The notes beneath the pieces are model-generated. The model ran no database searches, was not told where the DNA came from, and saw only the letters and a list, made by a program, of their open reading frames with translations. The position numbers and the translations under genes are program-made. 64,000 nucleotides of DNA from an uncultured bacterium (GTDB lineage: Bacteria > Eisenbacteria > RBG-16-71-46), in assembly GCA_964542745.1 (NCBI GenBank), contig CAZIVR010000001.1, positions 43,041-107,040 of the forward strand, in the 5' to 3' direction. Shown here piece after piece: positions 10,946 through 28,036 of the stretch (its first letter is position 1; each line of letters opens with the position of its first letter).

Positions 10946-13900
10946 TCACGGCAACCTCGTGACTCTTCGCTCCGCAACGAATCCTCCTGCCGTGATGCGG
11001 CACAGATAGACGCCCGCGCCGGCACGTCCACCTGCATCGAGCCTTCCGTCCCACATCGCCGAGTGACGCCCGGCCGGCAACTGCCGGTCGAGTAGCTCGG
11101 CCACGCGGCGGCCCTGTACATCGAAGATCTCGATCCGCACGCGGCTCGCCCGCGGCAGGTCGAAGCCGATCGTGGCCGAACTCGCGAACGGGTTGGGCCG
11201 GACCGGATGGAGCGCGAACTCCATGGGCGCCGCCGCCACGTCCGACGCGGGCTCGCGCCCGGAGACGGGCCCGCGTGAGGGGCCGCGCGCCCCACTCGCG
11301 AGCGCCGCTCCCGGCACCCGCACCACGAACAGGCAGTCCTCGCCCTCGCCCGGCGAGGTTGCGGGGGCAAAGCCGATCGTGAGTGTGTCGCCGGCCACGA
11401 AGTCGGCGGCGGCCGAGCCATCGGCCGCGCCTGAGAGGTCCCCGAGCCGCGAGTGGTTCGCACCCGTGAGCGCGTAGCGCCTGGGTGCCAGCACCACCGA
11501 CTCGAGCGTCGCCCCGGCCGGGAACACCAGCCGCCCCATCCCCGGCAGCGCGCGCACCCCGGCGCGGCCCGGCAGGAGCGGAGTCGTCACGTCCGTCACC
11601 CAGCCTTCGGCCTCGCTAAAGCTCTCGGCCACCATCGCCCGTTCGGTCGCGGCGAGCCGCGCGGGATCCTCCGCGAAGTCCTCGATCGTGAGCTGCCAGC
11701 GCGGCTCCGCCTCGCCCGCGTGCCCGGCCACGAGCCGCGAGGTAGTGGCGGCACTCGCGAGCGCGTGGCGCTCGGCCAGTCCCCGGAGGGCCGTCGCGCC
11801 GCGCGCCGGGGCGGATGGATCGGGCACGCCGTCGCCTTCGCCCCGGGTCCGCTCCGCCGAAGCCCCGGCGCCGCTCCCTCCGCACGAGGTGAGCGTCCCG
11901 AACTCGGCGTAGGCGAGCGGCGACCAGTGCCCCGACGTGCTGCGGGTGCGGCCTGCCACGTATACCAGCGTGCCCGGTTCCAAGTCGGTGAGAGTCCCCG
12001 CCGTCTGCGAGGTCCCCCCGGTGGCCGGGTCCGGCACGCCGGGGATCAAGCTCGCCGCCGCGAAGTTGGACGCGGAGATCGGCGCCAGCGACCAGCGCAC
12101 CTCGTACTCCTGCGCCTTTCCCGAGCAGCCGGAGTCCCCGGGGGCCGCCCAGCGCAGTGGCCCGATCGTGCTGCACGTGATCAGGTCCGCGGTGAGGTCC
12201 AGCTCGTCGGGGGCCGGGGTCGTGGAGGAGTTCACCCGGACCCAGCGGGCGATGGAGGGCACGTCAGCGCTCTGCGAGGTGCCGAGCACGAACAGCAGGT
12301 AGTCCCCGGGTGGCGCAGCGTCCGGGCTATCCGGGGTCGTGAGATGGAGCCTTGCCGGGGATGACTTCTTCGCGAGGATGGTGAGGGGGATGAACCGTTG
12401 GTTCATGTCCATCGAATGGGTGGTCGCACCGGGACGCATCAGGCAGGCGCTCTGGATGCTGGCGGTGTTGTCCACGCACACCGTGAACGCCGTGCCCCAG
12501 GTGATCTCCGCCGGTGCGCCCTGGATCTGCGGCCGCGTGGTGATCGGGTTCCCGCCCGAGTCGAACAGGTACGGCGGGCAGAAGAGCTGCGCCAGGCGCT
12601 TGTCGGCGTCGGCCTGCGTGTCGCCGGGACCCTGATTCTCACCCCCGGCGCTCAGCACGCGCCCGTCGGGAAGCAGGATGGCGGTCGAGTGGTCACCCCG
12701 GATGGTTCCCTGTTCGGCCAGCCGGTCCGACCCCGTCATGCTGGTCCAGGTTCCGCCACCGCTGGTTCCGGGAGTCCAGATCTGCGGCCGCTTTACCGGC
12801 CCCGCGCTGACGTTGTCGAAGACGTTGTTGCCGCCCACGGCGAGCACCTTGCCGTTGGGAAGCAGGACGAGATTGTGGTGCGACCGTGGCGCCATGTCCT
12901 CGGAAGCGACCCACGCGCTGTCGAAGCTCGCCGTGTTGAAGGTGATGGTGCGACCGGTGATCGCGTTGCCGGCATCGCTCCCGCCGGCCAGCATGATCTT
13001 CCCCGGGAGGTACTGGACGCCAGTCTTGGGGCGGAACAGCAGGCGATTGTCGTGCAGCGTGTCCCATTGGGCCGCCTGCCCGGTGGCCGGGAAGTCGCTC
13101 CAGTAGGCGCGCATGTCGTCGGTATTGATGTTGATCACCCGGCTGCCGCCGCTGTCGGCGCCCGGCACCACGAAGAGGGGCGGGTAGGAGCCCTGGAACA
13201 TCCGAGCGTTCGAGTGGAGGGTCCACTGGTTCGTGGCGGGGTCGTAGACCTCGGGGCTGCGCGCGATCTCGGCGAAGGGATCGAGCGAGGCCGTGTGGCC
13301 CCTCAGGCTGAAGCCGAGGTCGGACCACTGCTTCCAGGAGTTGTCGCTGGCCCAGGGGTCCACGATGTAGCTCTTCGAGTCGGCCGGCACGACCGAGCCG
13401 CCGGAGGCTCTCTCGCCGCCATACACGTAGAGCCGCGACCCGCCCTGGTTCCGGTCGAGCACCGCGCTGTGCCGCGCGCGGGCTCCGGGGGAGGTGCCGC
13501 CACCGGAGAGCAGCTTCCAGCCGTACCTCCCGTCGCCGAAGAGCCACAGCGCCCACAGCTCGTCCGAGTAGCTCAGGTCCCCGAGCTTGCCGCCATAGAG
13601 CAGGGCGGCGTGGGCGTTCGAGTGGCTGGCGTCGAAGTTGCGCGGCTTGTTGTCGGCGCTGAGCGTGTGCCACAGGCGGGCGGCGGGCTGGCCGTCTCCG
13701 AGTTCCTCCCGCACCATCGTGTGCCAGGTCGGGTTCGCCGGGTCCGAGGGGTTGAAGCGCAACTCGTAGACGTTCTGGTCCGTCGGCGTGCCGTTATGGC
13801 TCGTGGCGCCGCCGAACACGATCATGCGCTTGCGCAGCGTGTCGCTCACCATGGTCTCGTCGTAGATCGCCGTGTGACCGTAGCGGGCTGCCGGGCCGCC

Positions 13901-14995
13901 GGTGGCGCCGATCGCGTTCCAGGTATAGGTCAGGAACGTCGGACTGAAGGCGATTCGGCGAGCGTGGCTCAGGAGGTTGCCGCCTTCATCGAGCCCTCCG
14001 AATACGACGAGGGTGAGGTTCGAGTCTTTGACCGCGATCGCCGAGTGATCGGTCCGGCGAGGCTGTACGCCGCCCCCGGGCTGGATCTTGACCCAGTTGT
14101 ACGTCTGGCCGGCCCCGAGCTGGTTGCGATCCTGCATCAGTCGCCACAGGTCGTTCGCGGGTCCGGTCGCGGTCGTTCCACCGAACACCGTGAGCCCGTT
14201 GAACCCGAGGATCCCGGTCATCTCGGTCGCCGTGTGTCCGCTGCGCGGCGCGGGGCGGCCGTCCGGTCCCGCCGTGGGCAGCACGGGAGTGTCCCACTCG
14301 CCGTCGGGAATGGGCTCGAACCGCTGCAACGAGTCCGCAACGGGGCTCGCGGGCGGCGAGCCATTGCGGTCGCCGAACAGCACGCGATGCCGGGGGTGCT
14401 GGTTGCCGCTCACCACCAGGCCCTTGCCGGATCGCAGCGTGGCGACCGACGCGTACCAACGCCAGTCGTTCATCAGGGACGGCACCGACCAGCTCCCGAT
14501 CCCGCTGGATCCCGAGCCCGAGTGGAACACGTGCGCCTTGTTCTCGCCGTATTGCTTGGTCACCGGATGGGTGCCGCTTGCGAACAGAACCGCGCCATTG
14601 TCGCCGATTGCGGCGTGCCCGCTGCAGAACAGGTCCATGCTGGCGGTCGGCGCGTCGAGCTGCGCGAAGTTAGCGTCCGGGAAGTCCGAACATCCGTCGT
14701 TGCCGGGTGTCCAGCCCCACTGGCCGCCCAGCATCACGTCGGGCCCAAGCAGCTGCTTGTGGAACCAGAGGACGCGGCTGTGGTGCGGGTTGCCGTCGCC
14801 CTTCAGCAGCAGGAGGTGCACGGCGTAGCGTTCGCTGTGGCCGCGGCTCCAGTCCCGGGTCGGAGACCACGCGCCAAGGTCGGCCGCGGCAAGGCCGACC
14901 ATGACGGCCAGCGAGGCGGCAATGCCGGCAAAGTAGGCGAGGGAGAGTGGGCGAACTCGGAACCCTGACAGGACAAGGCGAGACGGACGCGACAT
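10946..14995 (-). CDS. Secreted galactose/glyoxal oxidase (AA5)-like Kelch protein with DUF1929 domain, Fn3-like domain and FlgD-like CTD
   Basis: DLFCSGH, WRWYAS, RGDHSTAILLPDGRVLSAGG, RPGATTHSMDMNQR, APPGDYLLFV; internal extra Kelch repeats; C-terminal RPNP...DVQGRRV...WDG. Confidence 0.82.
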   Translation of the reverse strand: MSRPSRLVLSGFRVRPLSLAYFAGIAASLAVMVGLAAADLGAWSPTRDWSRGHSERYAVHLLLLKGDGNPHHSRVLWFHKQLLGPDVMLGGQWGWTPGNDGCSDFPDANFAQLDAPTASMDLFCSGHAAIGDNGAVLFASGTHPVTKQYGENKAHVFHSGSGSSGIGSWSVPSLMNDWRWYASVATLRSGKGLVVSGNQHPRHRVLFGDRNGSPPASPVADSLQRFEPIPDGEWDTPVLPTAGPDGRPAPRSGHTATEMTGILGFNGLTVFGGTTATGPANDLWRLMQDRNQLGAGQTYNWVKIQPGGGVQPRRTDHSAIAVKDSNLTLVVFGGLDEGGNLLSHARRIAFSPTFLTYTWNAIGATGGPAARYGHTAIYDETMVSDTLRKRMIVFGGATSHNGTPTDQNVYELRFNPSDPANPTWHTMVREELGDGQPAARLWHTLSADNKPRNFDASHSNAHAALLYGGKLGDLSYSDELWALWLFGDGRYGWKLLSGGGTSPGARARHSAVLDRNQGGSRLYVYGGERASGGSVVPADSKSYIVDPWASDNSWKQWSDLGFSLRGHTASLDPFAEIARSPEVYDPATNQWTLHSNARMFQGSYPPLFVVPGADSGGSRVININTDDMRAYWSDFPATGQAAQWDTLHDNRLLFRPKTGVQYLPGKIMLAGGSDAGNAITGRTITFNTASFDSAWVASEDMAPRSHHNLVLLPNGKVLAVGGNNVFDNVSAGPVKRPQIWTPGTSGGGTWTSMTGSDRLAEQGTIRGDHSTAILLPDGRVLSAGGENQGPGDTQADADKRLAQLFCPPYLFDSGGNPITTRPQIQGAPAEITWGTAFTVCVDNTASIQSACLMRPGATTHSMDMNQRFIPLTILAKKSSPARLHLTTPDSPDAAPPGDYLLFVLGTSQSADVPSIARWVRVNSSTTPAPDELDLTADLITCSTIGPLRWAAPGDSGCSGKAQEYEVRWSLAPISASNFAAASLIPGVPDPATGGTSQTAGTLTDLEPGTLVYVAGRTRSTSGHWSPLAYAEFGTLTSCGGSGAGASAERTRGEGDGVPDPSAPARGATALRGLAERHALASAATTSRLVAGHAGEAEPRWQLTIEDFAEDPARLAATERAMVAESFSEAEGWVTDVTTPLLPGRAGVRALPGMGRLVFPAGATLESVVLAPRRYALTGANHSRLGDLSGAADGSAAADFVAGDTLTIGFAPATSPGEGEDCLFVVRVPGAALASGARGPSRGPVSGREPASDVAAAPMEFALHPVRPNPFASSATIGFDLPRASRVRIEIFDVQGRRVAELLDRQLPAGRHSAMWDGRLDAGGRAGAGVYLCRITAGGFVAERRVTRLP

Positions 14996-15194
14996 GGCGG
15001 CCTCCGCTTGGCATGACGTGGTGGACGATCAAAGAACCACGCGGGCCGTCGCGAAAGTCGTACCGGGATGAGGAACCTCGGCGGCGACGCGGAATGAAGA
15101 AAGGCTGGATCCACCCCGGGCACTGTGTCAACGTCTTTATCGCTTCCGGCCCCTCTTGGGGTCGGGTGGACATTCACTGAAGGACACGTTCTCG

Positions 15195-17174
15195 ATGATG
15201 CCCCGGCTGACCCCATCACTGGCCCTGGGGACCCTCCTGGCCACGACTTCTGCTCCCACCTCCGCCCTGGCTCAGTGGCAGCCAGACGGCGTGGCGGTAA
15301 GTGGGGCCTCGGGCGGGATCAACCTGGTGATCGCGGACGGCGAAGGGGGTGGCTACTTCGGGTGGCGCAACGGCGCCAACGCCGGCGATGTCTGGATTCA
15401 GCGGCTGGACGCGTTCGGACTCCCGCCCTTTGGCTGGCAAGCGGGCGGAATCCCCTTGGCGCTTCTCCCGGAATCTCAAGATCTCGTCGAGATCACTCGT
15501 GACGGCACCGGCGGCCTGCTGGTGCTCTGGGAGCACAACATCAACGACGCGCCGACCAGTGCGGATCTCTTCGTCCAGCGCGTGCTTGGCGACGGCTCGA
15601 TCGCTCCCGGTTGGCCCGCGCCTGGCCTCCGGATACTCGCTCCCGGACAGCAGACTCTCTCGGGAATCGCCTCGGATGGCGCGGGCGGAGCGTACATCGT
15701 GTGGCAGGACGACCGTGCCTGGGCCACTCGGCGCTACGACGTGTACGCGCTCCATCTGCTTGCCGATGGCAGCATCGCGCCCGGCTGGCCCGCGGATGGG
15801 CTCCCGATCGCGGCACTTCCGGGACACAACGCCGGTCCGCTCATTGTCTCGGATGGAGTCGGCGGGGCGTTCATCCTCTGGGCCGACGATCGCAACAACC
15901 CGGGCGGCGTGGGGGATACTTACGGCGTGCGGATCAACGGCGACGGCACGCTGGCCCCGGGCTGGGTCGCGAACGGCAATCGGCTGACCGTGCTCCAGCC
16001 ACGCCGGGGTCTGGTGCCCGACGAATCGGGCGGGATCTACCTGTGGACCACCAATGCGGGCGCCACGCCGGGCTTCGACAACGAATACTTCCTCTACCGG
16101 TTCACGGCCGCGGGCGCGCCGTCACCGGGGTGGCCCGCGAACGGCGTGCTGCTGTGCAGCGTGCCGGGGGACCGGGCCGCCACCTCGATGGAGCCGGACG
16201 GACAGGGCGGGGTGCTGCTGGCCTGGTACGACTACCGGCCGCCCTACGACCAGAGTTGCGGGGAGATTTTCGCCCTGCGGGTGCTGCCGAGCGGAGCGCG
16301 GGCGCCGGGCTGGAGCGCGAACGGATCGCTGGTGAGCGATCCGACCAACTCGACCTGCGAATACACGCCGGGAATCACCCGGGACGAGATGGGCGGCGCG
16401 TACATCGTGTGGACCATGAACGGGCCCTCCCAGGTGCAGCACCTGACCGCGAGCGGCCTGCCCGCGCCGGGCTGGCCGCCCTTCGGGGTGAGACTGGCTT
16501 CGTCGGGGGCGCAGAACGATCCCCAGATCGCGGCCGATGGCGAGGGGGGTGCGATCGTGGCGTGGTCGGAGGCGTGTTGCGGGCGGCTGCGGGTGTGGGC
16601 GCAGAAATACGTGCCGACCGGGATCGTGGCGGCGAGCCTGTCGCTGGTGAGCTCGGTCGCCGAGCGCGGGCGGGTGAGCCTCGAGTGGTTCGCGGCGAAT
16701 GGCGCCGGGCTCGCGGCCACGGTGGAGCGCCGCGAGGGCGACGAGGCATGGCGTCCGCTCGCGAACCTCACCGCCGATGGCACCGGGCACCTGCGCTACG
16801 AGGATCGGGACGTGACGCCGGGGGCGCGGTACCGCTATCGCCTCGCCTACCGCGACGGAGGAGCGGCGATGCACAGCGCCGAGACGCTCGTGGAGACGCC
16901 GGCAGCACTGGAACTGGCGCTCGAAGGGTTCCGGCCCAACCCGGCGGTGGGGCCGCCGCTGGTGTCGTTCACGCTGGCGCGATCCGCCCACGGCACGCTC
17001 GAGCTCTACGACCTCGCCGGGCGGCGCATGGCATGGCGCGACCTCGACGGGCTGCCTGCTGGCAGGCACGTGGTGCGGTTCGAGAGCCACCCGTCGCTGG
17101 CGCCGGGAGCGTATGTCATACGGCTCACGCACGCTGGCCGGGTGACCGCGGCTCGAGGCGTCGTGGTCAGATGA
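15195..17174 (+). CDS. Secreted repeat beta-propeller protein with FlgD-like CTD
   Basis: GAAGGA RBS before ATG 15195; signal peptide; about seven repeats of DGxGGx(Y/F)xxW...PGWPxxG; C-terminus RPNP...DLAGRR...PGAYVIRL. Confidence 0.8.
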   Translation: MMPRLTPSLALGTLLATTSAPTSALAQWQPDGVAVSGASGGINLVIADGEGGGYFGWRNGANAGDVWIQRLDAFGLPPFGWQAGGIPLALLPESQDLVEITRDGTGGLLVLWEHNINDAPTSADLFVQRVLGDGSIAPGWPAPGLRILAPGQQTLSGIASDGAGGAYIVWQDDRAWATRRYDVYALHLLADGSIAPGWPADGLPIAALPGHNAGPLIVSDGVGGAFILWADDRNNPGGVGDTYGVRINGDGTLAPGWVANGNRLTVLQPRRGLVPDESGGIYLWTTNAGATPGFDNEYFLYRFTAAGAPSPGWPANGVLLCSVPGDRAATSMEPDGQGGVLLAWYDYRPPYDQSCGEIFALRVLPSGARAPGWSANGSLVSDPTNSTCEYTPGITRDEMGGAYIVWTMNGPSQVQHLTASGLPAPGWPPFGVRLASSGAQNDPQIAADGEGGAIVAWSEACCGRLRVWAQKYVPTGIVAASLSLVSSVAERGRVSLEWFAANGAGLAATVERREGDEAWRPLANLTADGTGHLRYEDRDVTPGARYRYRLAYRDGGAAMHSAETLVETPAALELALEGFRPNPAVGPPLVSFTLARSAHGTLELYDLAGRRMAWRDLDGLPAGRHVVRFESHPSLAPGAYVIRLTHAGRVTAARGVVVR

Positions 17175-17216: not shown

Positions 17217-18305
17217 CTAGAGACTGAGCACCAGCTTCCCGAACGCTTGCCGCGCTTCGAGCTTCTCGTGGGCGCGGCGGGCTTCGGCGAGCGGGAACAC
17301 CTGATCCACCACCGGCACGAGCCGCCCGTCGCGCACGAAGCGCAGCACCTCGACCAGTTCCGAGCGGCGGCCCATCCAAGAGCCCATCAGGGTGAGGTGG
17401 CGGCCGAACAGCGGGTTGATGCCGAGCGACACGGCGCTGCCGATGGTGGCGCCGCAGGTCACGAGCCGGCCGTTCTTCGCAAGGGAGGCCGCGGCCTGCT
17501 CGAACACGTAGCCGCCGACGTGCTCGAAGGCCACCTCGACGCCCTTCCTGCCCGTGAGCGCGCGCACCTGCTTCGCGAAATCCTGATCGGCATGGCTCAC
17601 CACGTCGTGCGCGCCGAGGGCGCGAGCGCGCTCGAGCTTGGCGTCGCTGCCGGCGGTGGCGATGACGCGCGCGCCGATCAGGCGTGCGATCTGGATGGCG
17701 GCGCTGCCCACGCCGCTGCCGCCGCCGATCACGAGCACGTCCTCGCCCGCCTGGAGCTTCGCGCGCCCGACCAGCATGTGCCAGGCCGTGAGGAACACCA
17801 GCGGCACGGCGGCGGCCTGCTCCCAGCTCAGGTTTTCGGGGTACGGCAGGCAGTTGGCGGCCGGCACGGCGACGAGTTCCGCGTAGCCGCCATTGCGCCG
17901 CCGGCCGAGCACGTCGTAGTCGCGGCAAAGATTGTCGTCGCCGGCCACGCACGCGGGGCAGGAGCCGCACGAGAGCGTGGGCAGCACCAGCACGCGGTCG
18001 CCGGGTTTCACGTTCCGTGCGGCAGGCCCGGCTTCGCGCACCACGCCCACCACGTCGTTGCCGAGCACGTGCGGCATCTCGATCTCGAGCCCCGGCAGCC
18101 CGCGCCGCACCCACAGGTCGAGGTGGTTGATCCCGCAGGCCCTCACTTCGACGAGCACGTCGCCTGCCGCGAGGGCGGGCTCGGGAAGCTCGCGCGGCTC
18201 CAGCACCTCGGGACCGCCATGGCGGTCGAACACCACGGCCTTCATCCGGCGCGCGGGCTCCGATTCGTACACCCAGCGGCGCTCGGGCTCGCTCCGCTCA
18301 CTCAT
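17217..18305 (-). CDS. Zinc-binding MDR-family dehydrogenase/quinone oxidoreductase
   Basis: CGINHLD, PHVLGND, structural-Zn cluster CGSCPACVAGDDNLC, GGGSGVG NAD(P) site. Alternative start at ATG 18245. Confidence 0.9.
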   Translation of the reverse strand: MSERSEPERRWVYESEPARRMKAVVFDRHGGPEVLEPRELPEPALAAGDVLVEVRACGINHLDLWVRRGLPGLEIEMPHVLGNDVVGVVREAGPAARNVKPGDRVLVLPTLSCGSCPACVAGDDNLCRDYDVLGRRRNGGYAELVAVPAANCLPYPENLSWEQAAAVPLVFLTAWHMLVGRAKLQAGEDVLVIGGGSGVGSAAIQIARLIGARVIATAGSDAKLERARALGAHDVVSHADQDFAKQVRALTGRKGVEVAFEHVGGYVFEQAAASLAKNGRLVTCGATIGSAVSLGINPLFGRHLTLMGSWMGRRSELVEVLRFVRDGRLVPVVDQVFPLAEARRAHEKLEARQAFGKLVLSL

Positions 18306-19149
18306 CGAACGACACCGTGGGCTCCTCGTAGAAGCGCACCTTGCGCGCGGCGAGCTTCGCGGCCACCCACTCGGCGAGCCAGCGGTTCTTCCCGGCGAGC
18401 GGCTCGTCGGAGGCGAGCCGCTCGATCGGCACGTCGAGCCTGAGCGCCCGCCAGCGGATCAGGTGGCGGGTGATCCCGGCCGGGAGCCGCGCGCCGGTGG
18501 TGGCCAGCTCCACGACCTCGGCCGGTTCGAAGTGCGGGTAGACGACCAGCGCGGTGGTGCCGGGGTGGCGGTCGCTGGCGTCGGCGAACTCGTCGCTCGG
18601 CACGCGCACGTAGCGCTGGCGCTCGCGGTAGAGGTCCACCACCCGGTTGAGGAGCGCGTTGCGCTCGCCGATATCGGCGCCGCCGTGAAGCGTGTCGGTC
18701 GAGCCGTCGGCGTAGGCCACGAACGCGAGCGCCTCGCGGCGCGCGAGCAGCGCGCGCGCGTGCAGCAGCGGCTCTTCGCGAACCGTGAGTCCGGCGATGC
18801 CGCGCAGGCCGGCTTCGAGCTCGGCGCGCGGCATCTCGCCCAGGGCGTGGCTCCACGTGGAGAGCTTGACCGCGGGCTCGGCGTAGTCCACGACCTGCAC
18901 CACGAGGTGCGGGAACTTCGCCTCGCGCGCCGCGGTCACGCGGTTCGCGCCATCGAGAACGATGAAGCGCCCGTCGCCGCCCGGAAGCGCCGCCACGATC
19001 GGCGGGTTCTTGAGGTGGGCCTCACTGCGCAGCCGCTCGGCGAGCGGCGCGAGGCGTTTGGCGTCGTGGCGCTCGTGCGGCACCAGCGCCTCGACCGCGA
19101 CGAAGCGCAGGTCGGGCAGGCGATGATCGGAAACCGGCAGCCGGGTCAT
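18298..19149 (-). CDS. ParB/Srx-fold protein resembling SbnI/SerK free L-serine kinases
   Basis: LVPHE...LKNPPIV...FIVLDGANRV...KLSTWSH and C-terminal LPAGITRH...RALRLDVPI...RFYEEP parallel the SbnI layout as I recall it (LHE..., HPILV, MVIDGVHR, STW, PAGVTRF, RCLNLQVP, RCYTE). Confidence 0.72.
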   Translation of the reverse strand: MTRLPVSDHRLPDLRFVAVEALVPHERHDAKRLAPLAERLRSEAHLKNPPIVAALPGGDGRFIVLDGANRVTAAREAKFPHLVVQVVDYAEPAVKLSTWSHALGEMPRAELEAGLRGIAGLTVREEPLLHARALLARREALAFVAYADGSTDTLHGGADIGERNALLNRVVDLYRERQRYVRVPSDEFADASDRHPGTTALVVYPHFEPAEVVELATTGARLPAGITRHLIRWRALRLDVPIERLASDEPLAGKNRWLAEWVAAKLAARKVRFYEEPTVSFDE

Positions 19150-19165
19150 GGCGCCGGAATCTACC

Positions 19166-19951
19166 TCAGGCGGACCGGGAGGGCTCGGCCGCGGGGCGCC
19201 GCGCCCGGTACAGCGCGAATCCCATCGTGTCGCGCCCCCAGCGGCGGTAGAGCGCGTGCCACGAGCGGCTGCGGGCGAGGAACGCCTCGCGGTCGGGGTC
19301 GGCCGGGTGGGCCTCGAAGTGGCGCTCGATGTTCGCGGCGTAGCGGTCTTCGTACGCGTCCCACTCGGCCTCGGTGCTGGCCGCCTCGTCGAGCAGCTCG
19401 AAGCCCGCCGCGGCCAGCGCCGCGCGGTTGTCCTCGAGGGTGCCCAGTTCGTCGCGCGAGCCGCCGAAGCCGGCGAGGTACTCGGGTTCGGGTTCGCGTT
19501 TCCAGTAGCCGTGCCCGAGCAGGAGCCGGCCGCCCGGGGCGAGCCGCCGGTGGAGCGCCGCGAGCGCCTCCGGAAGCGCGCCCAGGGCGTGCGCCGAGCC
19601 CACGCACATCGCGAGGTCGAAGGTGCGGGAGCCCGCGAGCGCCGTCGCGGCCGCGCCCTCGATCCACTCGATGCCGCCGCCGGCGCCGGGCGCGCCCCCC
19701 GCCGCGGCGCGGGCGCGGGCCTCGTCGAGGAACGTTGGGTTCAGGTCCACACCGGTGCCGCGCGCGCCCCAGCGGGCGACCACCCGCACCAGCAGTTCGC
19801 CTTTTCCGCACCCCACGTCGAGCACCCGCGCGCCGGGTTCGAGTTCGAGCGCCTCCACGAAGCGGCTGAGGGTCCCGGCGCCGAGCGGGTTGCAGAAGTC
19901 GTGCGTCGCGTGGGCGAGGGTCGTGAAGCGATAGGGGTTCGCTCCGCTCAT
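19166..19951 (-). CDS. Class I SAM-dependent methyltransferase
   Basis: VLDVGCGKGELL, GVDLNP, FDLAMCVGS, LAPGGRLLLGHGYW. ATG 19951 overlaps the upstream stop (ATGA). Confidence 0.9.
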   Translation of the reverse strand: MSGANPYRFTTLAHATHDFCNPLGAGTLSRFVEALELEPGARVLDVGCGKGELLVRVVARWGARGTGVDLNPTFLDEARARAAAGGAPGAGGGIEWIEGAAATALAGSRTFDLAMCVGSAHALGALPEALAALHRRLAPGGRLLLGHGYWKREPEPEYLAGFGGSRDELGTLEDNRAALAAAGFELLDEAASTEAEWDAYEDRYAANIERHFEAHPADPDREAFLARSRSWHALYRRWGRDTMGFALYRARRPAAEPSRSA

Positions 19952-20772
19952 CGCTCCCACGCCAGGGTCGCGCCGATTCGGGCGAAGGGCCCGCCCAGGT
20001 CGAGGTCGCGTCCCGCCACGAAGTCGCGCAGCTCGTCGTCGAAGTCGAAGGCGAAGCGCGAGCCCCCCGACTGGCTCGACGCGCGGGTGCCGCTGTAGGA
20101 GAGGGGCGTCCGGTGGTGGCGCCAGCCGGCCGCGAAGCGGAGCCCGAGCGGACCGTCGCCGGCCACGACGCCGAGCTCGAGCGAGCCCGCGAAGCCGTGG
20201 CCCTTGCCGAGCGCCGTGCCGCCCGGGGCCGAGAACTGGAGCCGCGCGCTCCCCACGCCGGCCGCGGCCTGCGCGTAGGCCGACGTGCCGCGGCGCGCGC
20301 CGGGCAGCGTCCAGCGCGCGGCGACCAGCCAGGCGTTGCTGGTGGCGTCCGCCTCGGTCGGGTATTCGGCCAGCGCGCCGCCGCCCGAGGCCTCGCGCAC
20401 CGCGAACTCGGACTTGCCCGTGGGCCGGTCGTACTGGATCCCGGCGAAGAGGCCGGGCCGGAGCCTCGCGAGGATCGCGGCCTCGAACGACGTGGTGGTG
20501 GCCGGGAGGTTGGAGGTGGTGACGGCGAGTCCCGAGGCGCGCGCGCCGGACTCGAGGCTCGCCACGCCGTCGTTCCACTCGCCCATCCCGGCCCACGCCT
20601 GCTGGAGCGCGAGCTCGGCGACGAAACCGCGCGTGGCCCGCGCCTCGGCGCGCGGGGGAGGAGACGCCGGGTAGGCCGGAGGCTCGGCCGCCGTGGCTGC
20701 AGTCGGTGCGCTCCCCGCCGGGGCCGCGAAGGCGAGCGCGGCGATCGCGAACGCCGTGGCCGCGCGCCCCAA
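19948..20772 (-). CDS. Putative outer-membrane beta-barrel protein
   Basis: Signal-like RAATAFAIAALAFAAPA, then alternating amphipathic beta-strands and a C-terminal ...ARIGATLAWER. Start uncertain (TTG 20772 or TTG 20835). Confidence 0.6.
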   Translation of the reverse strand: MGRAATAFAIAALAFAAPAGSAPTAATAAEPPAYPASPPPRAEARATRGFVAELALQQAWAGMGEWNDGVASLESGARASGLAVTTSNLPATTTSFEAAILARLRPGLFAGIQYDRPTGKSEFAVREASGGGALAEYPTEADATSNAWLVAARWTLPGARRGTSAYAQAAAGVGSARLQFSAPGGTALGKGHGFAGSLELGVVAGDGPLGLRFAAGWRHHRTPLSYSGTRASSQSGGSRFAFDFDDELRDFVAGRDLDLGGPFARIGATLAWER

Positions 20773-20811
20773 AGCGCGGCGGCCACTCGCGGAGTCGCGG
20801 GTGGCCGCCGG

Positions 20812-20899
20812 GGCCGGGATTCCGGCTCGCGTCAACGGTACAGCGCTTTCATCCGGCCCCACGACACCGCGGTGGCCGGCACCGCGTCCTGGATCGAGA
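20812..20899. repeat. 88-bp perfect direct repeat, copy 1
   Basis: GGCCGGGATTCCGGCTCGCGTCAACGG...CTGGATCGAGA is identical to 21777-21864 (offset 965 bp). Confidence 0.92.
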
Positions 20900-21764
20900 C
20901 CTGGTGAACGGCGCCGCCCTCGTATCTCACATCCGCGACGTAGATCGTCGAATTGTTGAACAGAACCAGATCCAGCGGCTGCGTAAAGTTGGCTGTTCCC
21001 ATGTAAGCCAGCGCCTCGAGCCGCGTGCCCCCCGGAGCGTGGACCGAAAGCACTCCATTGACATACACGCCCCAGGAGATGGCGAAAATACGTCCCGAGT
21101 TGTCCACGTCGATGCCCCGAACGCTCGAATTGATCACGGTGGGGATGGATCCCAGCGGGACGCCGTCCTCGTTGAACTTGAATACGAGTCCGTTGACATC
21201 CCCGGCGAGATAGACCACGCCATTTCGGACCGCAAGAACGCATGCGGCGGTGGTGAGCGACCACGATGCGGTCAGCGCCCCCGTCGTGTCCCAGCGACGG
21301 ATCGTGGTCACACCGCTGTTGTTCGTGGCGATAAAAATACGATCTGCCGAACCGAGCTTGGGGGTGGACCAACCGTGGGTTCCTCTCGGCACCGGCCAAG
21401 CGCTGAGGACTCGACCGGAATCATTCATCAGGATGAGGCGGGGAAAGGCACCACCAAGGTCGAGCGTGAGGAGCCGACCATCCGACATTCTCAAAGCGCC
21501 ATGGTGGCTGGAAATCTGGTCGTCGCCCGGCCACTGAGAGGCGACGCGCGACAGGAGCAGGCTCCAGGACTCGCTGTAGCGAAACATTGCTCCGGAGTCC
21601 GTGAGCAACAGCGTTCCATCGCCGGCGTCTGCGATCGCACGGGTGTTCGTGCCCGGATAGATCGTCCGCTGGAAGTGCAGGATCTGGGCGCGCACCTCGG
21701 TCGCCGCTCCCGCGAGCGCGACGAGCAGGAGTGCGGGGATCAGGCACGCGGGGTTCGTCTTCAT
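20832..21764 (-). CDS. Secreted NHL-like beta-propeller protein with C-terminal SWGRMKALYR motif (paralog B)
   Basis: GGAG RBS before ATG 21764; MKTNPACLIPALLLVALAGAATEVRA signal; ends QDAVPATAVSWGRMKALYR. Confidence 0.8.
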   Translation of the reverse strand: MKTNPACLIPALLLVALAGAATEVRAQILHFQRTIYPGTNTRAIADAGDGTLLLTDSGAMFRYSESWSLLLSRVASQWPGDDQISSHHGALRMSDGRLLTLDLGGAFPRLILMNDSGRVLSAWPVPRGTHGWSTPKLGSADRIFIATNNSGVTTIRRWDTTGALTASWSLTTAACVLAVRNGVVYLAGDVNGLVFKFNEDGVPLGSIPTVINSSVRGIDVDNSGRIFAISWGVYVNGVLSVHAPGGTRLEALAYMGTANFTQPLDLVLFNNSTIYVADVRYEGGAVHQVSIQDAVPATAVSWGRMKALYR

Positions 21765-21776
21765 GATTCGCTCCGA

Positions 21777-21864
21777 GGCCGGGATTCCGGCTCGCGTCAA
21801 CGGTACAGCGCTTTCATCCGGCCCCACGACACCGCGGTGGCCGGCACCGCGTCCTGGATCGAGA
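21777..21864. repeat. 88-bp perfect direct repeat, copy 2
   Basis: Identical to 20812-20899; covers the last ~22 codons of paralog A plus 20 nt downstream of its stop. Confidence 0.92.
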
Positions 21865-22753
21865 ACTGGTGCACCGCGCCAAAGCCCCAGCTTCCGTCCG
21901 CGATGTAGATGGTCGAGTTGTTGACCAGCACCAGGTCGGACGGCGCCGAGAACGAGCTGCCCGTACCCGGGCGATCCAGCGCCTGGAGGCGCGTGCCGCT
22001 GGGAGCGAGGATCGAAAGCACCGCGACGCCACCCGGGCTCCCGGCGATGGCGAGGATCCGGCCCGAGGCGTCCACGTCCATGCCCTGCACGCTCGATCCG
22101 ATCACGGTGGGGACCGACCCCAGCGAGACACCGCCCTCGTTGAACTTGAAGATCTGCCCGCTGGCATCCCCGGCGAGGTAGACCACGCCGTTCCGGACCG
22201 CGAGCACGCACGCGGCGGTGTTGAGCGACCACGACGCGGTGATCGTCCCCGCGGCGTCCCAGCGGCGAACCGTGGTCACGCCGTTGGTGTTCGTGGCGTG
22301 GAAGACCTGCCCCGCCGATCCGAGTTCGGGCGTGGACATGGCGGTCAGCCCGCGCGGCACCGGCCACTCGCCGAGCCGTGCGCCGGCGTCGTCGAAGAAA
22401 ACGAAACGCGACCCGATCCATTCGCCGCCCGGCGCACCGCCGGGATCGAACGTCAGCAGGCGGCCGTCCGGCAGCCGGAGGCCGCCGATCGTGTTGACGA
22501 ACGGCTCGCCGCTCACTCCCGGCGAGTAGTTCTCGCGGGACATGAGCAGGCTCCACCCCCCGGAGTAGCGGCGAAACGTGTTGTGACTCGTGACGAGCAG
22601 CGTTCCGTCGCCGGCGTCGGCGAGCTTGCGCGCGGGAACTCCGGGCAGGATCGTCTGCTGGAAGAGCAGGATCTGGGCGCGCGCCTCGGTGGCCGCGCCG
22701 GCGAGCGCGACGAGGAGGAGCGCGGCGAGCGAAAGGGCCGGACTCGGTTTCAC
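21797..22753 (-). CDS. Secreted NHL-like beta-propeller protein with C-terminal SWGRMKALYR motif (paralog A)
   Basis: GGAGGG RBS before GTG 22753; aligns end to end with paralog B (AQILxFQxTIxPG..., WSLxTAACVLAVRNGVVYLAGD, identical tail). Confidence 0.8.
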   Translation of the reverse strand: MKPSPALSLAALLLVALAGAATEARAQILLFQQTILPGVPARKLADAGDGTLLVTSHNTFRRYSGGWSLLMSRENYSPGVSGEPFVNTIGGLRLPDGRLLTFDPGGAPGGEWIGSRFVFFDDAGARLGEWPVPRGLTAMSTPELGSAGQVFHATNTNGVTTVRRWDAAGTITASWSLNTAACVLAVRNGVVYLAGDASGQIFKFNEGGVSLGSVPTVIGSSVQGMDVDASGRILAIAGSPGGVAVLSILAPSGTRLQALDRPGTGSSFSAPSDLVLVNNSTIYIADGSWGFGAVHQFSIQDAVPATAVSWGRMKALYR

Positions 22754-22897: not shown

Positions 22898-24019
22898 CTA
22901 CTTGGCGACTTTCGTCTCGGCCGCGCGACCGCTCTCGAAATAGGCTTTCTTGAGCCGCTCCATGAGCTCGCCGCGGCGCTCGTACAGCCGGCGGGGCTTG
23001 CGCGGCGCGTGGCGGGCGAGCGCGTAGGCGGTGAGCAGCGGCAGGCCGATGGTCGAATCGGTGTAGCAGATCACCGTGCCCGGGAGCTGGTCGGGATCGA
23101 TCTTGCCCCAGCTCACCGCCTCGGCGGGTGTGGCGCCCGAGAGGCCGCCGGTGTCGGGCCGCGCGTCGGTCACGGCGAGGAAGTAGTCGTGGCCCTTCTC
23201 GGCGATGCCGAGCACTTCCTGGATCTGCGGCTCGGTCTGGAGCAGGAAGTTCTTGGGGCTCCCGCCGCCCAGGATCCACACCGCGCTCTTGCCGCCGCCC
23301 GCCTTCGCGTCCCACACGATCGCCGCGGTCTCGTTCACGTCGGCGTTCACGTCGATCAGCAGCTTCGACCCCTCGAGCGCCTTGGCCGCCACGTTCATGC
23401 CGATCGAGGAGTCGCCGGGCGACGAGGTGTAGATCGGCACCGCGTGCTCCCACGCCGCCGCCAGCAGCGAGCGGCCCTTGAGCCCGAGCTTTTCCTCGCG
23501 GGCGCGCACGTACTTGCCGCACAGGTAGTGGAACTCGGCGCTGCTCATGGTGCGCTGGAACTCGGGGGCGGCGATCACCTCGCGGAAGAACGCGTCGGTG
23601 TCGAGCAGCACCGAGTAGTCGAAGAACACGTCGTAGATGCGCACCACTTCCTTCTCGCGCAGCTCGACGTCGTCGGCCTGGTAGGTGCCCTGGTGCATGT
23701 CGAGGCCGATGCCGAAGTGGGTGTCGTGGTACAGGTTCGCGCCGGTCGAGACGATCCAGTCCACGAATCCCGCCTCGATGAGCGGGATCAGCGCGCTCAT
23801 GCCGAGGCCCGCGGGCGTGAGGGCGCCCGTGATCGAGAGCGCCACCGTCACGTCGGGCTCGAGCATGCGCTCGGTGAGGAGCCGCGCCCCCTCGCGGAGC
23901 CGAGCGCCGTTGTAGGCGAGGAACGCGCGGTCCACGAGATCGGCGGCGGTTTCCTTGCCGGTGATGGGCGGCGGGCTGATGCGGGGTCCCCGGATGTGGG
24001 GGTTCTTCTTCGGGCTCAT
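22898..24019 (-). CDS. Deoxyhypusine synthase-like protein (bacterial SpeY/homospermidine synthase type)
   Basis: [50 protein letters not shown] (catalytic Lys). Start at ATG 24019. Confidence 0.92.
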
Positions 24020-24451
24020 GGCGGGCTCCGGTCGGACGGATCGCGGCGGCGTTCGAGTCGCGGAGAGTAGCGCGGGGGGCCGGTGGGTCCAAGCCGGGAG
24101 ACACCGCGCGAGACCCGGGCCGGCTCCCGGCCGTGGGCGCGACGCGGGTGTCGCCCGCGCCGACACTTCGGCCGGCGGGAACGGGGGCATGAACGACTTC
24201 ATCTCGGGCGGCCGGGCCCGGACGCCGGGCGATGCCCCCGGAAATCGCGGCGCCGGCCGGGCGATTCGGCGTGCGAATCGCGACGACGTCCCGGCCCGTC
24301 CCTCCCGGCACCGTGCTTGCGTTCCCGGAGGGTGAGGCGTGAATCTGCGGCCCCTCGACCCGGGGACGCGGCGTGCGCCCTCGGACACGGACGCCCGGCC
24401 GCCCTTCGCGGCGGCGAGCTTCGCAGCCTTCGACCCACTGGCGGATCCTTC

Positions 24452-27400
24452 ATGCACCTCGCGAACGCGCACCCTTCGGGACTCGGGCGGCTGGGAAATC
24501 ACGCGCGATCCCCGCGTCATTCGGCCACGACCTCGGGGCTACCGGCCGGGACCCTCGCGCTGGCCGTGCTTTTCGCAATCCTCGCGGCGCCGGCCTCGTT
24601 CGCCGACACCGTGCTCCACCGCGTCAACGTGGGAGGGGCGCCACTGGCCGCGCTCGACGCCGGGCCCGCGTGGAGCGAGGACTCGAACGCGAACCCCTCC
24701 TCGTACGTGAACTGGGCGCAGTCCGGGAACTGGTTCGGCGGCACCGACCAGCCGATGGGCGCGCCGCACCCTTCGGTGCCCGCGTACGTGCCGGCCGCGC
24801 TCTTCGACACCGAACGCTGGGACTGGGCGGACGCCGACGACCAGACCTGGGAGTTCCCGGTCCCGAACGGAACGGTGCGCGTCAACCTGCTGTTCGCCGA
24901 GGGCTGCAACTGCGCGAACTTCGCGAACGGCCGGAAATTCGACGTGGACCTGGAAGGCGCGCAGGTGCTCGACGATTTCGACCAGTTCGCCACCTTCGGC
25001 AGCTTCACGCCGGGCATGCAGACCTTCCTCGTGAACGTCGCCGACGGGGGACTCACCCTCAAGCTCCGTCACGGGCCCGCCAACGCGCCCTCGATCCGCG
25101 GCATCGAGGTGGTGCAGGTGGACGTGAGCCAGACGCTCCAGTCGTCGCGCACCTCGATCGGCTTCGGCACGGTGTTCGTGGACTCGACCTCGGGCCCGCA
25201 GGGCGTCACGCTCACCCACCTCGGCTCGGGCGGCGATCCCTCGATCACGATCACGGGCGTCTCGGTCACCGGGCCCTTCACCCACACCCTCGCGCCCCAG
25301 ACGCTGCTGCCGGGACAGAGCCGCAACTTCAACGTGAAGTTCACGCCCACGGCGGTGGGCCCGGCGAACGGCACGCTCACCGTGACCCACTCGGGCGACA
25401 ACAGCCCGATCGAGATCGCGCTCGCGGGGACCGGCGCCAACGTGCCGCCGATCGGATTCGGGAAGTCGTGGCTTCAGGGGCTGGTCGCGGCGGGCCCCAC
25501 GTCGCTCCAGTTCGGGCCGGACGGGCGGCTCTACATCGCCGAGATCAACGGCGCCATCCTCGTCGCCGACGTGGTCCGCACCGCGCCCAACGTCTATCAG
25601 GCGAGCCTCGCCCACATCCTCGACCACGTGAAGAACATCCCGAACCACGACGACGACGGCTCGCTCAACCCGAGCCTGGACACCCGCCTCGTCACCGGCC
25701 TGCTCGTGACCGGCACGCCGTCGAACCCGGTGATCTACGTGACGAGCTCGGACTCGCGGATCCAGGAGTCCGGCTTCCCCGGCTCCGACACCAACTCGGG
25801 GATCCTCTCGCGCCTGACGTGGAACGGGTCCGCCTGGGAGAAGCTCGACCTGGTGCGCGGGCTGGCGCGCTCGCAGGAGAACCACGCCTCGAACGGGCTC
25901 GCCCTCGACACCCTCACGAACACGCTCTACATCGCCTCGGGGGGCCACACCAACATGGGGGCGCCCTCGAACAACTTCTACTTCCTGCCCGAGTACGCGC
26001 TGTCCGCCGCGATCCTTTCGGTGGACCTCGACGCGATCGGCGAGACCACCTACGACCTCCCGACGCTCGACGACGAGGACCGGCCCGGAGTCAACGACGC
26101 GAACGATCCGTTCGGCGGCAACAAGGGCAAGAACCAGGCGCGGATCGTTCCCGGCGGGCCGGTCCAGGTTCACTCCTCGGGCTACCGCAACCCCTACGAC
26201 GTGGTGTGGACCGGGGCCGGGCGCCTCTACACGATCGACAACGGCCCGAACATCGCGTGGGGCGGTCCCCCGGTCGGGGAAGGGCCCGGCGACGGCTGCA
26301 CGAACGCCATCAACGAATCGAACAGCGCGACGCTGAACGACAACCTCCATCTCATTCCCGCGGCCGGCTACTATGCCGGTCATCCCAACCCGACGCGGGC
26401 CAGCGTCGCCAACACCTTCAACGCGTCCAACCCGCAATCGCCGGTCCCGGCCGGCAATCCGGCCGAGTGCGACTACCTCGAGCCGGGCGTGGACGGCTCG
26501 CTCGCGTCGTGGCCGTACTCCACCAACGGGCTCTGCGAGTACCGCGCCTCGAACCTCGGCGGCGCGCTTCAGGGCAACCTGCTCGCCGCGAGCTTCAACA
26601 ACGACGTCCAGCGCATCGTGCTGAACGCCGCGGGCGACAGCGCCGTCAGCGTGGGGGCGCTCTTCTCCAACGTCGGCAACATCCCGCTCGACATCACGGC
26701 CCAGGGCGACGAGGGGCCGTTCCCGGGCACGATCTGGGTGTGCAACCTGGGCTCGGGGCTGATCGCGGTGTACGAGCCCTCCGACTACGACGGCAACACC
26801 AGCACCTGCACCGGCGCTGACGACGACCAGCTCGACGAGGACGGCGACGGCTACAACAACGCCGACGAGATCGACAACGGCACCAGCCCGTGCTCGGCGG
26901 GGGACTTCCCGTCCGACTTCGACTCGGACTTCCTCTCCGACCTGAACGATCCCGACGACGACAACGACGGCTGGCTCGACACCGTGGACCCGTTCGCGAT
27001 CGACGCCTCGAACGGCGCCACGCCCATGCCCGTCCTGTACTCGTGGGACGCGGGCAACCCGGGCTTCGGCCTGCTCGGCGTGGGCTTCACCGGGCTCATG
27101 ACCGACAGCCTCACCGACTACCGGCTCCAGTACGACCCGGTCCAGATGACCGCGGGCGGGGCCGCCGGCAAGGTGACGATCGACAACGTGCCCGCGGGCG
27201 ACGCGCTGGGCGCGCAGAACGACCAGCGCTACGCGTTCCAGTTCGGAGTCGCCACCGACTCCACGAGCCCGGTGTTCCTGGTGCGGACCCGCGCCTCGAC
27301 CCCGTACTTCAACGGCAGCCCGCCGAGCGGCTTCCAGTCGCAGGGGCTCTACGTCGGCGACGGCGCCGACGACGACTACCTGAAGATCGCGATCGCCCGC

Positions 27401-28036
27401 GACGGCGCCGATCCCGCCATCGAGGTGGTCCACGAGGTGGACGGCGTGCCGACCTCGTTCGTGATTCCCGTGCCCGGGCTGCTCGCCGGGACGGGCGTGG
27501 ATCTCCAGTTCGTGGTGGACCCGCTGGCCGCCACGATCCAGCCGCGCTACGCCTACGCCGGTGGCCCGATCCAGAACGCCGGCGCGCCGGTCGCGCTGGT
27601 TCCGGGTTCGAAGCTGCACTCGGCGGTCGTCGGCTCGCCCGCGATGGCGGTCGGCGTCATCGCCACGTCGCGGGGCGCCACGCCGTTCGCCGCGACGTGG
27701 GAATTCATGGACGTGCTACCGATGTCGGGGGTGTCGGTCGAGGGGGCCGTCCGCCCCACGCGCGTCGCCCTCGGGCTCCCGCGCCCCAATCCGTCGCGGG
27801 GCTCGGTCGCGCTGAACCTCTCGCTCGGCTCGGCGAGCCGGGTGGAGGGCGCGGTGTTCGACGTGGCCGGCCGGCGCGTGCGGACCCTCATCCGCGGCAC
27901 GCTCGGGCCCGGCGTCCACCCGCTGCGCTGGGACGGACGCGACGACTCGGGCCGCGCCGTGGCGGCGGGCGCCTACCTCGTGCGCCTCGACGCGGGCGGG
28001 GTGGTCGAATCCCGGCGGGTGCTGATGCTGCGGTGA
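24452..28036 (+). CDS. Secreted malectin + Ig-like + GSDH/PQQ-propeller-like + Asp-rich Ca-binding repeat protein with FlgD-like CTD
   Basis: RVNVGG...VRVNLLFAE...RKFDVDLEG (malectin); IGFGTV...FTPTAVG (Ig-like); GPDGRLY...ENH...GYRNPYD (GSDH-like); DxDxDG repeats; PRPNP...DVAGRRV...WDGRDDSG. Confidence 0.8.

Follow-up and report, generated by a model that had tools for sequence, protein, structure and literature searches.

A predicted free-serine kinase of the SbnI/SerK type and its gene partners in Candidatus Eisenbacteria and other bacteria

In a 64,000-nucleotide stretch of DNA from an uncultured bacterium of the Eisenbacteria (GenBank assembly GCA_964542745.1, contig CAZIVR010000001.1, positions 43,041 to 107,040; hereafter the 64-kb window), the minus-strand gene at 18298-19149 encodes a ParB-fold protein of the SbnI/SerK type, and comparisons of sequence and predicted structure make a convincing case that it is a distant relative of both known free-serine kinases. 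A first-pass annotation made from the letters alone had proposed this identity, and full-length matches to NCBIfam models, PDB profiles and Foldseek structures now bear it out. We consider it probable that the protein phosphorylates free L-serine to O-phospho-L-serine. In the mechanism that we envisage, a nucleotide would donate a phosphoryl group to the hydroxyl on the side chain of free L-serine, with E26 as the predicted catalytic base and D66 and R70 in the putative nucleotide/metal site; precedents for the nucleotide donor are ATP in SbnI and ADP in SerK. In Candidatus Eisenbacteria the kinase gene heads a conserved pair with the gene of a Zn-type medium-chain dehydrogenase.

To our knowledge, free-serine kinases have been studied experimentally in two groups only, archaeal SerK and staphylococcal SbnI. 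What is new here is a distinct and widespread clade with new gene partners, which shares the fold of SbnI and SerK and probably also their chemistry. If the predicted activity is true, bacteria would commonly reach cysteine, tryptophan and central carbon metabolism by phosphorylating serine, a dedicated substrate source would be suggested for the O-phosphoserine-dependent TrpB2 enzymes, and many 'ParB N-terminal domain-containing' and 'hypothetical' labels could be corrected. For the window itself the outcome is more modest: a well-supported kinase homologue with one conserved, unexplained dehydrogenase partner, an exotic four-gene pathway being unlikely.

Fold and catalytic residues of the kinase homologue

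Among the NCBIfam models, the kinase matched SbnI (NF033589) with E=6.7e-17 and 61.7 bits over residues 13-276, and SerK (NF053625) with E=2.9e-14 and 52.8 bits over nearly the full length. When searched alone against the PDB, its sequence retrieved SbnI at 9e-11 and SerK at 6e-7; a profile of 40 diverse family members, built on an alignment with the window protein as its first sequence, retrieved SbnI at E=2e-36 (residues 5-250 of 254) and SerK at 2e-15, with Noc/ParB weak at about 0.007-0.8. Pfam reported no family for the kinase at E<=0.1, ParBc and DUF1015 included. The same 40-sequence alignment gave an AlphaFold2 model with a pLDDT of 94.5 and a pTM of 0.89, for which the top Foldseek matches were nine structures of SbnI, SerK and PF0380 (E 1e-15 to 7e-14), with target-normalised TM-scores (TMt) of 0.79-0.85 over 237-270 aligned columns (0.80-0.82 over 255-270 columns for SbnI). 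Both domains of the known kinases, the N-terminal ParB/Srx domain and the SbnI/SerK-type C-terminal domain, are present. In contrast, the alignments with ParB, Noc, KorB, PadC and sulfiredoxin are limited to about 80 N-terminal residues (query-normalised TM-score of about 0.24 for ParB, Noc and KorB), and past this core only SbnI and SerK match the chain. The best structural matches are therefore whole-chain ones to SbnI and SerK, and not, as the first-pass annotation had allowed for, a DNA-binding ParB or a sulfiredoxin lacking the SbnI C-terminal domain.

All of the motifs on which the proposal had been built were located in the protein, on the minus strand:

PHE, residues 24-26, 19072-19080: E26 is the predicted catalytic base
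NPPIV, residues 48-52
VLDGANR (with D66 and R70), residues 64-70, 18940-18960: ParB/Srx nucleotide-binding core
STWSH, residues 97-101
PAGITRH, residues 223-229, 18463-18483: C-terminal domain
RALRLDVP, residues 234-241
RFYEE, residues 272-276, 18322-18336: C-terminal, with R272, Y274 and E276 invariant

The glutamate of the HE motif, singled out earlier as the residue to check, is where it should be: E26 aligns with SbnI E20 and SerK E30 (PHE at residues 28-30 of SerK with PHE 24-26 of the window protein), and D66 aligns with SbnI D58 and SerK D69. Structures of the SerK mutants E30A/E30Q (5x0e, 5x0g, 5x0j, 5x0k) are among the Foldseek matches, and Verstraete and colleagues reportedly found in 2018 that Glu20 and Asp58 are essential in SbnI. 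The 40-sequence alignment has twelve invariant positions (E26, P49, L65, D66, Q85, W99, H101, Y174, R234, R272, Y274 and E276), and conservation reaches 90% or more at R70, P223, G225 and R228. PAGITRH aligns with PAGVTRF in SbnI and TTRH in SerK; the C-terminal R-x-Y-x-E segment is common to SbnI (MRCYTE) and lies beyond the end of SerK.

The closest characterised relative of the window kinase is SbnI of Staphylococcus (PDB 5uje, 5ujd, 6nr6), an ATP-dependent L-serine kinase and heme-responsive regulator of the staphyloferrin B operon. The two proteins share the HE glutamate, the DGxxR aspartate, the PAG(I/V)TR(H/F) motif and the C-terminal R-x-Y-x-E segment; however, they are only about 22% identical, the partner in the window is a Zn-type dehydrogenase, and sbnA, sbnB and siderophore synthetase genes are absent from the window, with no PALP or ornithine-cyclodeaminase (OCD) gene in the 64 kb. 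SerK (Thermococcus kodakarensis TK0378; PDB 5x0b and related entries), the archaeal ADP-dependent free serine kinase, has the same two-domain fold (TMt 0.79-0.85), with Glu30 and Asp69 aligned to E26 and D66, and, like the clade of the window kinase, adjoins 3-phosphoglycerate dehydrogenase genes (PMC5120207). Unlike the window kinase, which has a bacterial host, it lacks the R-x-Y-x-E segment. The 2016 SerK paper considered clear homologues to be absent from bacteria, and found the enzyme to be serine-specific, threonine and homoserine not being substrates (PMC5120207). In a 2025 survey of the ParB-CTPase fold, SerK, SbnI and Srx figure as isolated ATP-binding examples. The window kinase stands outside both curated families and, judging from the shared residues and fold, most likely works like SbnI and SerK.

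Three other assignments were considered and rejected. Sulfiredoxins are single-domain proteins of about 100 residues whose active-site motif, FGGCHR, holds the catalytic cysteine; the kinase has 283 residues, two domains and an LDGANR motif without cysteine. A canonical ParB/Noc clamp was discarded on account of the alignment of only about 80 residues with the N-terminal ParB/Srx core, the weak PDB profile E-values and the failure of Pfam to detect ParBc. The DUF1015 'SerBK' proteins of a GapMind 2026 preprint, remote structural relatives of SbnI that are linked to serA and for which serine/phosphoserine interconversion is proposed, form a separate family; the window kinase matches SbnI directly by sequence, and membership was rejected on the Pfam null result at E<=0.1.

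A third bacterial group and its O-phosphoserine-linked partners

Among word-indexed candidates, the family comprises 1,412 proteins at E<=0.001; clustering at 50% identity leaves 1,007 representatives, 230 of them below 1e-30. In a one-genome-per-species collection, relatives were confirmed at no fewer than 581 of the 599 stretches matching the motif [YF][VI][VI]LDGANR, and 201 further relatives were confirmed with the variant LDGATR. By these counts the clade is present in at least some 780 species genomes, apart from SbnI and SerK, and on sequence grounds it is a third, separate bacterial group beside them, distinct and widespread. Its hosts are Eisenbacteria, Chloroflexota (Thermoflexus, Anaerolineae, Caldilineae, Ardenticatenales), Comamonadaceae and other Burkholderiales, and Ignavibacteria/Kapaibacteria. 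Public labels read 'ParB N-terminal domain-containing protein' or 'hypothetical', and one JGI entry carries the KEGG-style label 'L-serine kinase (ATP) / ParB family transcriptional regulator'. The 40-sequence alignment being too diverse for locus scans, two narrower alignments were used for these; the LDGANR set consists of 90 loci (L001-L090) from the matches listed, 87 of which are informative for adjacency of the dehydrogenase, and the LDGATR subfamily set has 71 informative loci.

The partner genes of the family point to serine as the substrate and O-phosphoserine as the product. Seven representative proteins carry a D-2-hydroxyacid dehydrogenase of the SerA type fused to the N-terminus of the kinase domain, and the kinase is immediately preceded by a SerA-like gene in 33 of the 71 informative LDGATR loci, about nine of which have a pyridoxal phosphate (PLP) enzyme ahead of that gene. 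In 15 Chloroflexota loci the kinase forms a same-strand cluster with TrpB2 and an indolepyruvate-ferredoxin-oxidoreductase-like gene, and in two more LDGATR loci SerA separates the kinase from a TrpB2 gene about 2.3 kb upstream. A TrpB-like PLP enzyme (730 bits against a cut-off of 366) follows the kinase in six Comamonadaceae/betaproteobacterial loci, two of which (L078, L084) also have a convergent SerB nearby (174 bits against 144). Seven Anaerolineae loci have a PLP enzyme of the cystathionine-beta-synthase (CBS) type directly upstream (534.6 bits against 510), no more than about 190 nt away from the kinase start, and in four of the seven the two genes overlap or are 6 nt or less apart; a SufT-like Fe-S assembly gene comes after the kinase in two Anaerolineae loci. 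One further protein is a fusion of the kinase domain with a Prok-JAB domain. The CysM enzyme of Mycobacterium works with O-phosphoserine and the carrier CysO, from which a JAB protease (Mec+) frees cysteine.

These clade partners and fusions (TrpB2, CBS-like, SerA-like, SerB and JAB) all point to O-phosphoserine. TrpB2 enzymes are described as O-phosphoserine-dependent tryptophan synthases (Busch et al. 2014, cited in PMC11917138), SbnI supplies O-phosphoserine to the PLP enzyme SbnA (PMC12414870), and archaeal serK adjoins genes for 3-phosphoglycerate dehydrogenase and an aminotransferase (PMC5120207). Because several unrelated types of partner converge on O-phosphoserine, and because the window kinase shares 43-55% identity with those clade members that are linked to TrpB2 or CBS, serine phosphorylation is its most likely activity. 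In the literature searched we found no paper linking TrpB2 to a serine kinase, and none on serine or cysteine metabolism in Eisenbacteria. The first-pass annotation had placed the kinase outside any siderophore or cysteine cluster. This holds within the 64-kb window, where no such gene was found; for the family it is misleading, since in other phyla the kinase has close genomic links with O-phosphoserine-using enzymes of cysteine, tryptophan and serine metabolism.

The indolepyruvate-ferredoxin-oxidoreductase-like gene adjoins the kinase-TrpB2 pair in Chloroflexota (L093-L108) and also in Burkholderiales (L067, L076, L083, L085). Its recurrence suggests a module for tryptophan or indole salvage or turnover built around O-phosphoserine. 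In one Anaerolineales locus (L009, 6862-9900) the kinase is followed by a gene for a 1,012-residue TCAD9 + NB-ARC/AAA protein, which is probably an unrelated conflict-system neighbour. The kinase neighbours in Ignavibacteria/Kapaibacteria, a metallo-beta-lactamase (MBL)-fold hydrolase and a PpiD-like protein as judged from reading the sequences alone, gave no functional hint.

The kinase-dehydrogenase pair in Eisenbacteria and alternative readings

In the window, whose G+C content is about 72% and whose nearest protein relatives are found in Candidatus Eisenbacteria metagenome-assembled genomes (MAGs), the kinase belongs to a block of four minus-strand open reading frames (ORFs), each recovered at the position given by the first-pass annotation:

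17217-18305 (longest ORF) or 17217-18245 (342 aa, from the MKAVVF start), minus strand: Zn-type medium-chain dehydrogenase/reductase (ADH)
18298-19149, minus strand: SbnI/SerK-like ParB-fold kinase (ParBk), 283 aa
19166-19951, minus strand: class I S-adenosylmethionine (SAM)-dependent methyltransferase, 261 aa
19948-20772, minus strand: secreted small beta-barrel-like protein, 274 aa from TTG 20772

A start-optimising gene caller based on G+C at third codon positions (GC3) recovered the same four genes, and all four look coding, since GC3 is 0.92-0.95 in each, as expected for this genome. The junctions had been described as ATGA or short overlaps and one 16-nt gap. Two of them stand, namely the ATGA overlap between the barrel stop and the methyltransferase start and the 16-nt gap between methyltransferase and kinase. 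The third is probably different: the longest ADH ORF shares 8 nt with the end of the kinase gene (ATGAGTGA), but the orthologues have 342 residues and start with MKAVV, and the Thermus structure 2eih aligns from that residue, so that the ADH probably starts at 18245 and follows the kinase after a 52-nt spacer. The arrangement suggests that the kinase-ADH pair is probably co-transcribed in the window with the upstream methyltransferase and barrel genes. A consensus scan for promoters and terminators returned no promoter and one terminator-like site on the other strand, and among sequencing runs containing the window sequence we found DNA metagenomes only (bioreactor, sand filter, sludge) and no RNA runs.

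The ADH has the Pfam domains ADH_N (PF08240, 96.7 bits) and ADH_zinc_N (PF00107, 117.1 bits), both above their cut-offs, a four-cysteine motif (C93, C96, C99, C107), and C37 and H59. Its nearest solved structure, matched over the full length at E=2.8e-103, is the uncharacterised Thermus thermophilus ADH 2eih, which has the same two domains. No curated NCBIfam equivalog cut-off was reached, and the type of reaction is uncertain because the next matches include quinone oxidoreductases and enoyl-CoA reductases.

In 51 of the 87 informative loci, all from Eisenbacteria-type MAGs, the kinase is followed within 700 nt by a same-strand ADH of 59-79% identity, the gap being mostly -3 to 60 nt with a median of about 12. 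Among the 73 loci where an upstream gene was called, the nearest one has the opposite orientation in 53, for which reason the kinase is probably the first gene of its operon there; Pfam was uninformative for the conserved divergent upstream genes. Six Eisenbacteria loci have a replacement for the ADH: an OCD-family gene followed by a threonine-dehydratase-like PLP enzyme in L028, a cyclodeaminase-like gene in L034 and L049, and a PLP enzyme in L035, L037 and L058. These OCD-like and threonine-dehydratase-like genes score below the SbnB and SbnA cut-offs. In one Ardenticatenales MAG (L167) SerA and the kinase are immediately preceded by a 45%-identical ADH, an order that gives a weak hint that the pairing may be functional and not merely inherited. 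In most Eisenbacteria loci the ADH is followed by a protein of about 125-135 residues, whose gene is not in the window and which, by eye in four sequences, has two hydrophobic helices:

L002, 9888-10271: two-helix protein
L088, 8885-9280: two-helix protein
L089, 8923-9321: two-helix protein
L090, 6350-6721: two-helix protein

It carries the motif GYHxxGGLGWLDSLYNASMILSGMGPVD and has a pore-loop or channel-like appearance; Pfam gave no informative match. In the window its place is occupied by the secreted-protein genes at 10946-14995 and 15156-17174.

Several points weigh against a serine kinase in the window. The scores of 61.7 and 52.8 bits fall well short of the equivalog cut-offs of SbnI (350 bits) and SerK (380 bits), the identity to the characterised proteins in structure alignments is about 20-23%, and the members of the clade are known from their genes alone. 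No O-phosphoserine-consuming enzyme was found in the 64-kb window, and the Eisenbacteria subclade could use another acceptor, since the dehydrogenase has no obvious place in phosphoserine chemistry. Nucleotide use in the ParB/Srx fold is not predictable either, because one SerK-like protein is reported to bind CTP and not ATP (PMC12704722). Finally, part of the kinase-ADH adjacency may be plain conservation of gene order within one phylum, given that synteny extends to the flanking homospermidine-synthase-like, GlcF-like and AlkZ-like genes.

A broader reading joins two parts, clade-wide serine kinases that supply O-phosphoserine and a separate Eisenbacteria pathway of kinase, ADH and membrane protein; we offer it only tentatively. 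In the clade at large, O-phosphoserine may be made for PLP beta-replacement enzymes (TrpB2, CBS and cysteine-synthase-type) and for SerA-linked serine assimilation, and in Eisenbacteria there may be an undescribed serine- or phosphoserine-dependent pathway in which the ADH acts on an intermediate derived from the kinase.

It is less likely that the kinase of the Eisenbacteria subclade acts on another hydroxyl acceptor (threonine, homoserine, a hydroxy acid or an amino alcohol), which the ADH would make or consume. Such a role would suit a dehydrogenase that is a phylum-wide partner, a 64-kb window devoid of PLP enzymes, scores far under the equivalog cut-offs, and the pairing of the kinase in other Eisenbacteria with enzymes for other amino acids, resembling ornithine cyclodeaminase and threonine dehydratase. 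However, clade members 43-63% identical to the window kinase carry serine- or phosphoserine-linked partners, the window kinase has all 12 invariant residues of the 40-sequence alignment, and SerK itself is inactive on threonine and homoserine (PMC5120207).

The same chemistry could also serve another role, the enzyme replacing SerB by interconverting phosphoserine and serine, or degrading serine toward 3-phosphoglycerate; this we regard as improbable. The frequent SerA fusions and adjacency in the clade are compatible with it, as are the serine assimilation that Makino et al. proposed for SerK (PMC5120207) and the proposal of the GapMind 2026 preprint that serA-adjacent DUF1015 SerBK proteins replace serB and support serine utilisation. 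Yet Pfam finds no DUF1015 in the window kinase, the window has neither serA nor serC, and the preprint itself describes the reverse reaction as thermodynamically unfavourable.

A wider proposal of the first-pass annotation was that barrel, methyltransferase, kinase and ADH may form a single pathway of phosphorylation, methylation and redox chemistry on an envelope component or small metabolite. Tight packing (the ATGA overlap, the 16-nt gap and the 8-nt overlap or 52-nt gap) speaks for such a pathway, and so do the recurrence of the same order in L088, the insertion of a TMEM260-like glycosyltransferase in L089 and L090, and the resemblance of the barrel model to outer-membrane proteins. We nevertheless judge it very unlikely, because only the kinase and ADH are kept as a unit in evolution. 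When the suggested comparison of synteny was made, the ADH was retained in 51 of 87 loci, but the barrel and methyltransferase proved sporadic among the 90. No homologue of the barrel was found in L001-L087; the three closest relatives, L088-L090, are the only loci that have one (53-62% identity), and a collection of 5.8 billion proteins holds just nine members of the family. The methyltransferase is present in seven other loci and complete in five (L050, L056, L063, L088, L090), but it lies directly upstream of the kinase only in the window and L088, being 3-5 kb from the kinase or parted from it by another gene elsewhere. In the 53 of 73 loci with an opposite-strand neighbour, moreover, the kinase is probably operon-first.

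What does persist around the pair is a backbone formed by a homospermidine-synthase-like gene, a variable stretch in which genes come and go, and kinase-ADH. The anchoring genes in the window are:

22898-24019, minus strand: homospermidine-synthase-like gene of the deoxyhypusine synthase family (NF001980, 569.9 bits against a cut-off of 450)
9370-10818: GlcF-like gene, assigned by eye from its N-terminal sequence and the order in L088
7915-9264: AlkZ-like gene, assigned in the same way

In 22 related loci (among them L002, L012, L013, L015, L020, L022, L023, L025, L039 and L088-L090) the homospermidine-synthase-like gene precedes the kinase, at distances that vary. In L050, L056 and L063 the methyltransferase follows it directly, with the kinase 3-5 kb further on, and in L088 and L090 the barrel gene stands between the two. 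The full order in L088, the one locus in which the four-gene order recurs, is homospermidine-synthase-like, a 319-aa gene, barrel, methyltransferase, kinase, ADH, a 131-aa gene, GlcF-like and AlkZ-like. L090 has homospermidine-synthase-like, barrel, methyltransferase, TMEM260-like glycosyltransferase, kinase and ADH, and L089 has the same order without the methyltransferase. The GlcF-like and AlkZ-like genes are still in order in the window, parted from the ADH by two large secreted-protein genes. From these comparisons, the methyltransferase and barrel appear to be lineage-specific passengers of the variable stretch and not conserved pathway partners, and the evolutionary unit in Eisenbacteria is kinase-ADH alone. 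The TMEM260-like gene (glycosyltransferase family C (GT-C), protein O-mannosyltransferase-like; L089 5190-6989, L090 2516-4333) is not in the window.

Least probable of all is that the kinase homologue is a ParB-like DNA-binding regulator or nuclease and not a small-molecule enzyme: SbnI is annotated as both regulator and kinase, nuclease activity was once reported for a Pyrococcus homologue (PMC5120207) and related loci have genes of DNA repair (Ada/AlkA, Ogt, AlkZ-like) at some distance downstream, but ParB, Noc and KorB align with the N-terminal core only, the catalytic Glu and Asp are invariant, and the partners and fusions of the family are metabolic enzymes.

Neighbouring proteins and other features of the window

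The methyltransferase matches the Pfam families Methyltransf_25, _11 and _23 and reached no curated NCBIfam family; by its domains it is a generic class I enzyme. PADLOC matched it to mad2 through the SAM-binding domain only, and, with nothing else reported by PADLOC, a defence-system reading was rejected. The barrel protein has no Pfam or NCBIfam match and a hydrophobic, signal-like N-terminus. Its AlphaFold2 model, made from a nine-sequence alignment and of moderate confidence (pLDDT 74.8), has about 11 long strands and found OmpA, OmpW, OmpX and Ail in Foldseek (E about 1e-5, TMt 0.5-0.6, root-mean-square deviation 6-7 Å). The 'beta-barrel' label is plausible, with no more than moderate support.

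The database call for the barrel protein of the window (P0271) has 295 residues, corresponding to a start at TTG 20835. Between the stop of the second of two upstream paralogues and the barrel start at TTG 20772 lies the following element:

20775-20830, minus strand: GC-rich double hairpin followed by CUUUG, just upstream of TTG 20772

The RNA fold of 20770-20835 has an energy of -41.5 kcal/mol (z=-4.6 against shuffled sequences). The hairpin may be a terminator or leader that divides the upstream paralogues from the four-gene block, an attenuator, or a repeat element. A barrel start at TTG 20835, which overlaps the upstream stop, would make the hairpin coding.

The paralogues themselves, and a set of larger secreted proteins, are located as follows:

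20832-21752 and 21797-22753, minus strand: two tandem secreted-protein paralogues of about 306-318 aa
10946-14995, minus strand: large secreted protein
15156-17174, plus strand: large secreted protein
24083-28036, plus strand: large secreted protein
55398-55610, plus strand: 70-aa stand-alone fragment

No Pfam match was found for either paralogue. They end in an identical C-terminal peptide (SIQDAVPATAVSWGRMKALYR), and the GC3 of the downstream copy, about 0.76, is below that of the upstream copy (0.89) and of the neighbouring genes; the 319-aa gene of L088 is at the same position. The large secreted proteins and the fragment share a C-terminal domain type of about 80 residues (FDxxGRRVxxL...GxHxxxWDGRDxxGxxxxxGxYxxRL), which by eye resembles FlgD-Ig, a domain that Pfam reported on comparable L088 proteins. 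It may be a sorting or surface-attachment domain.

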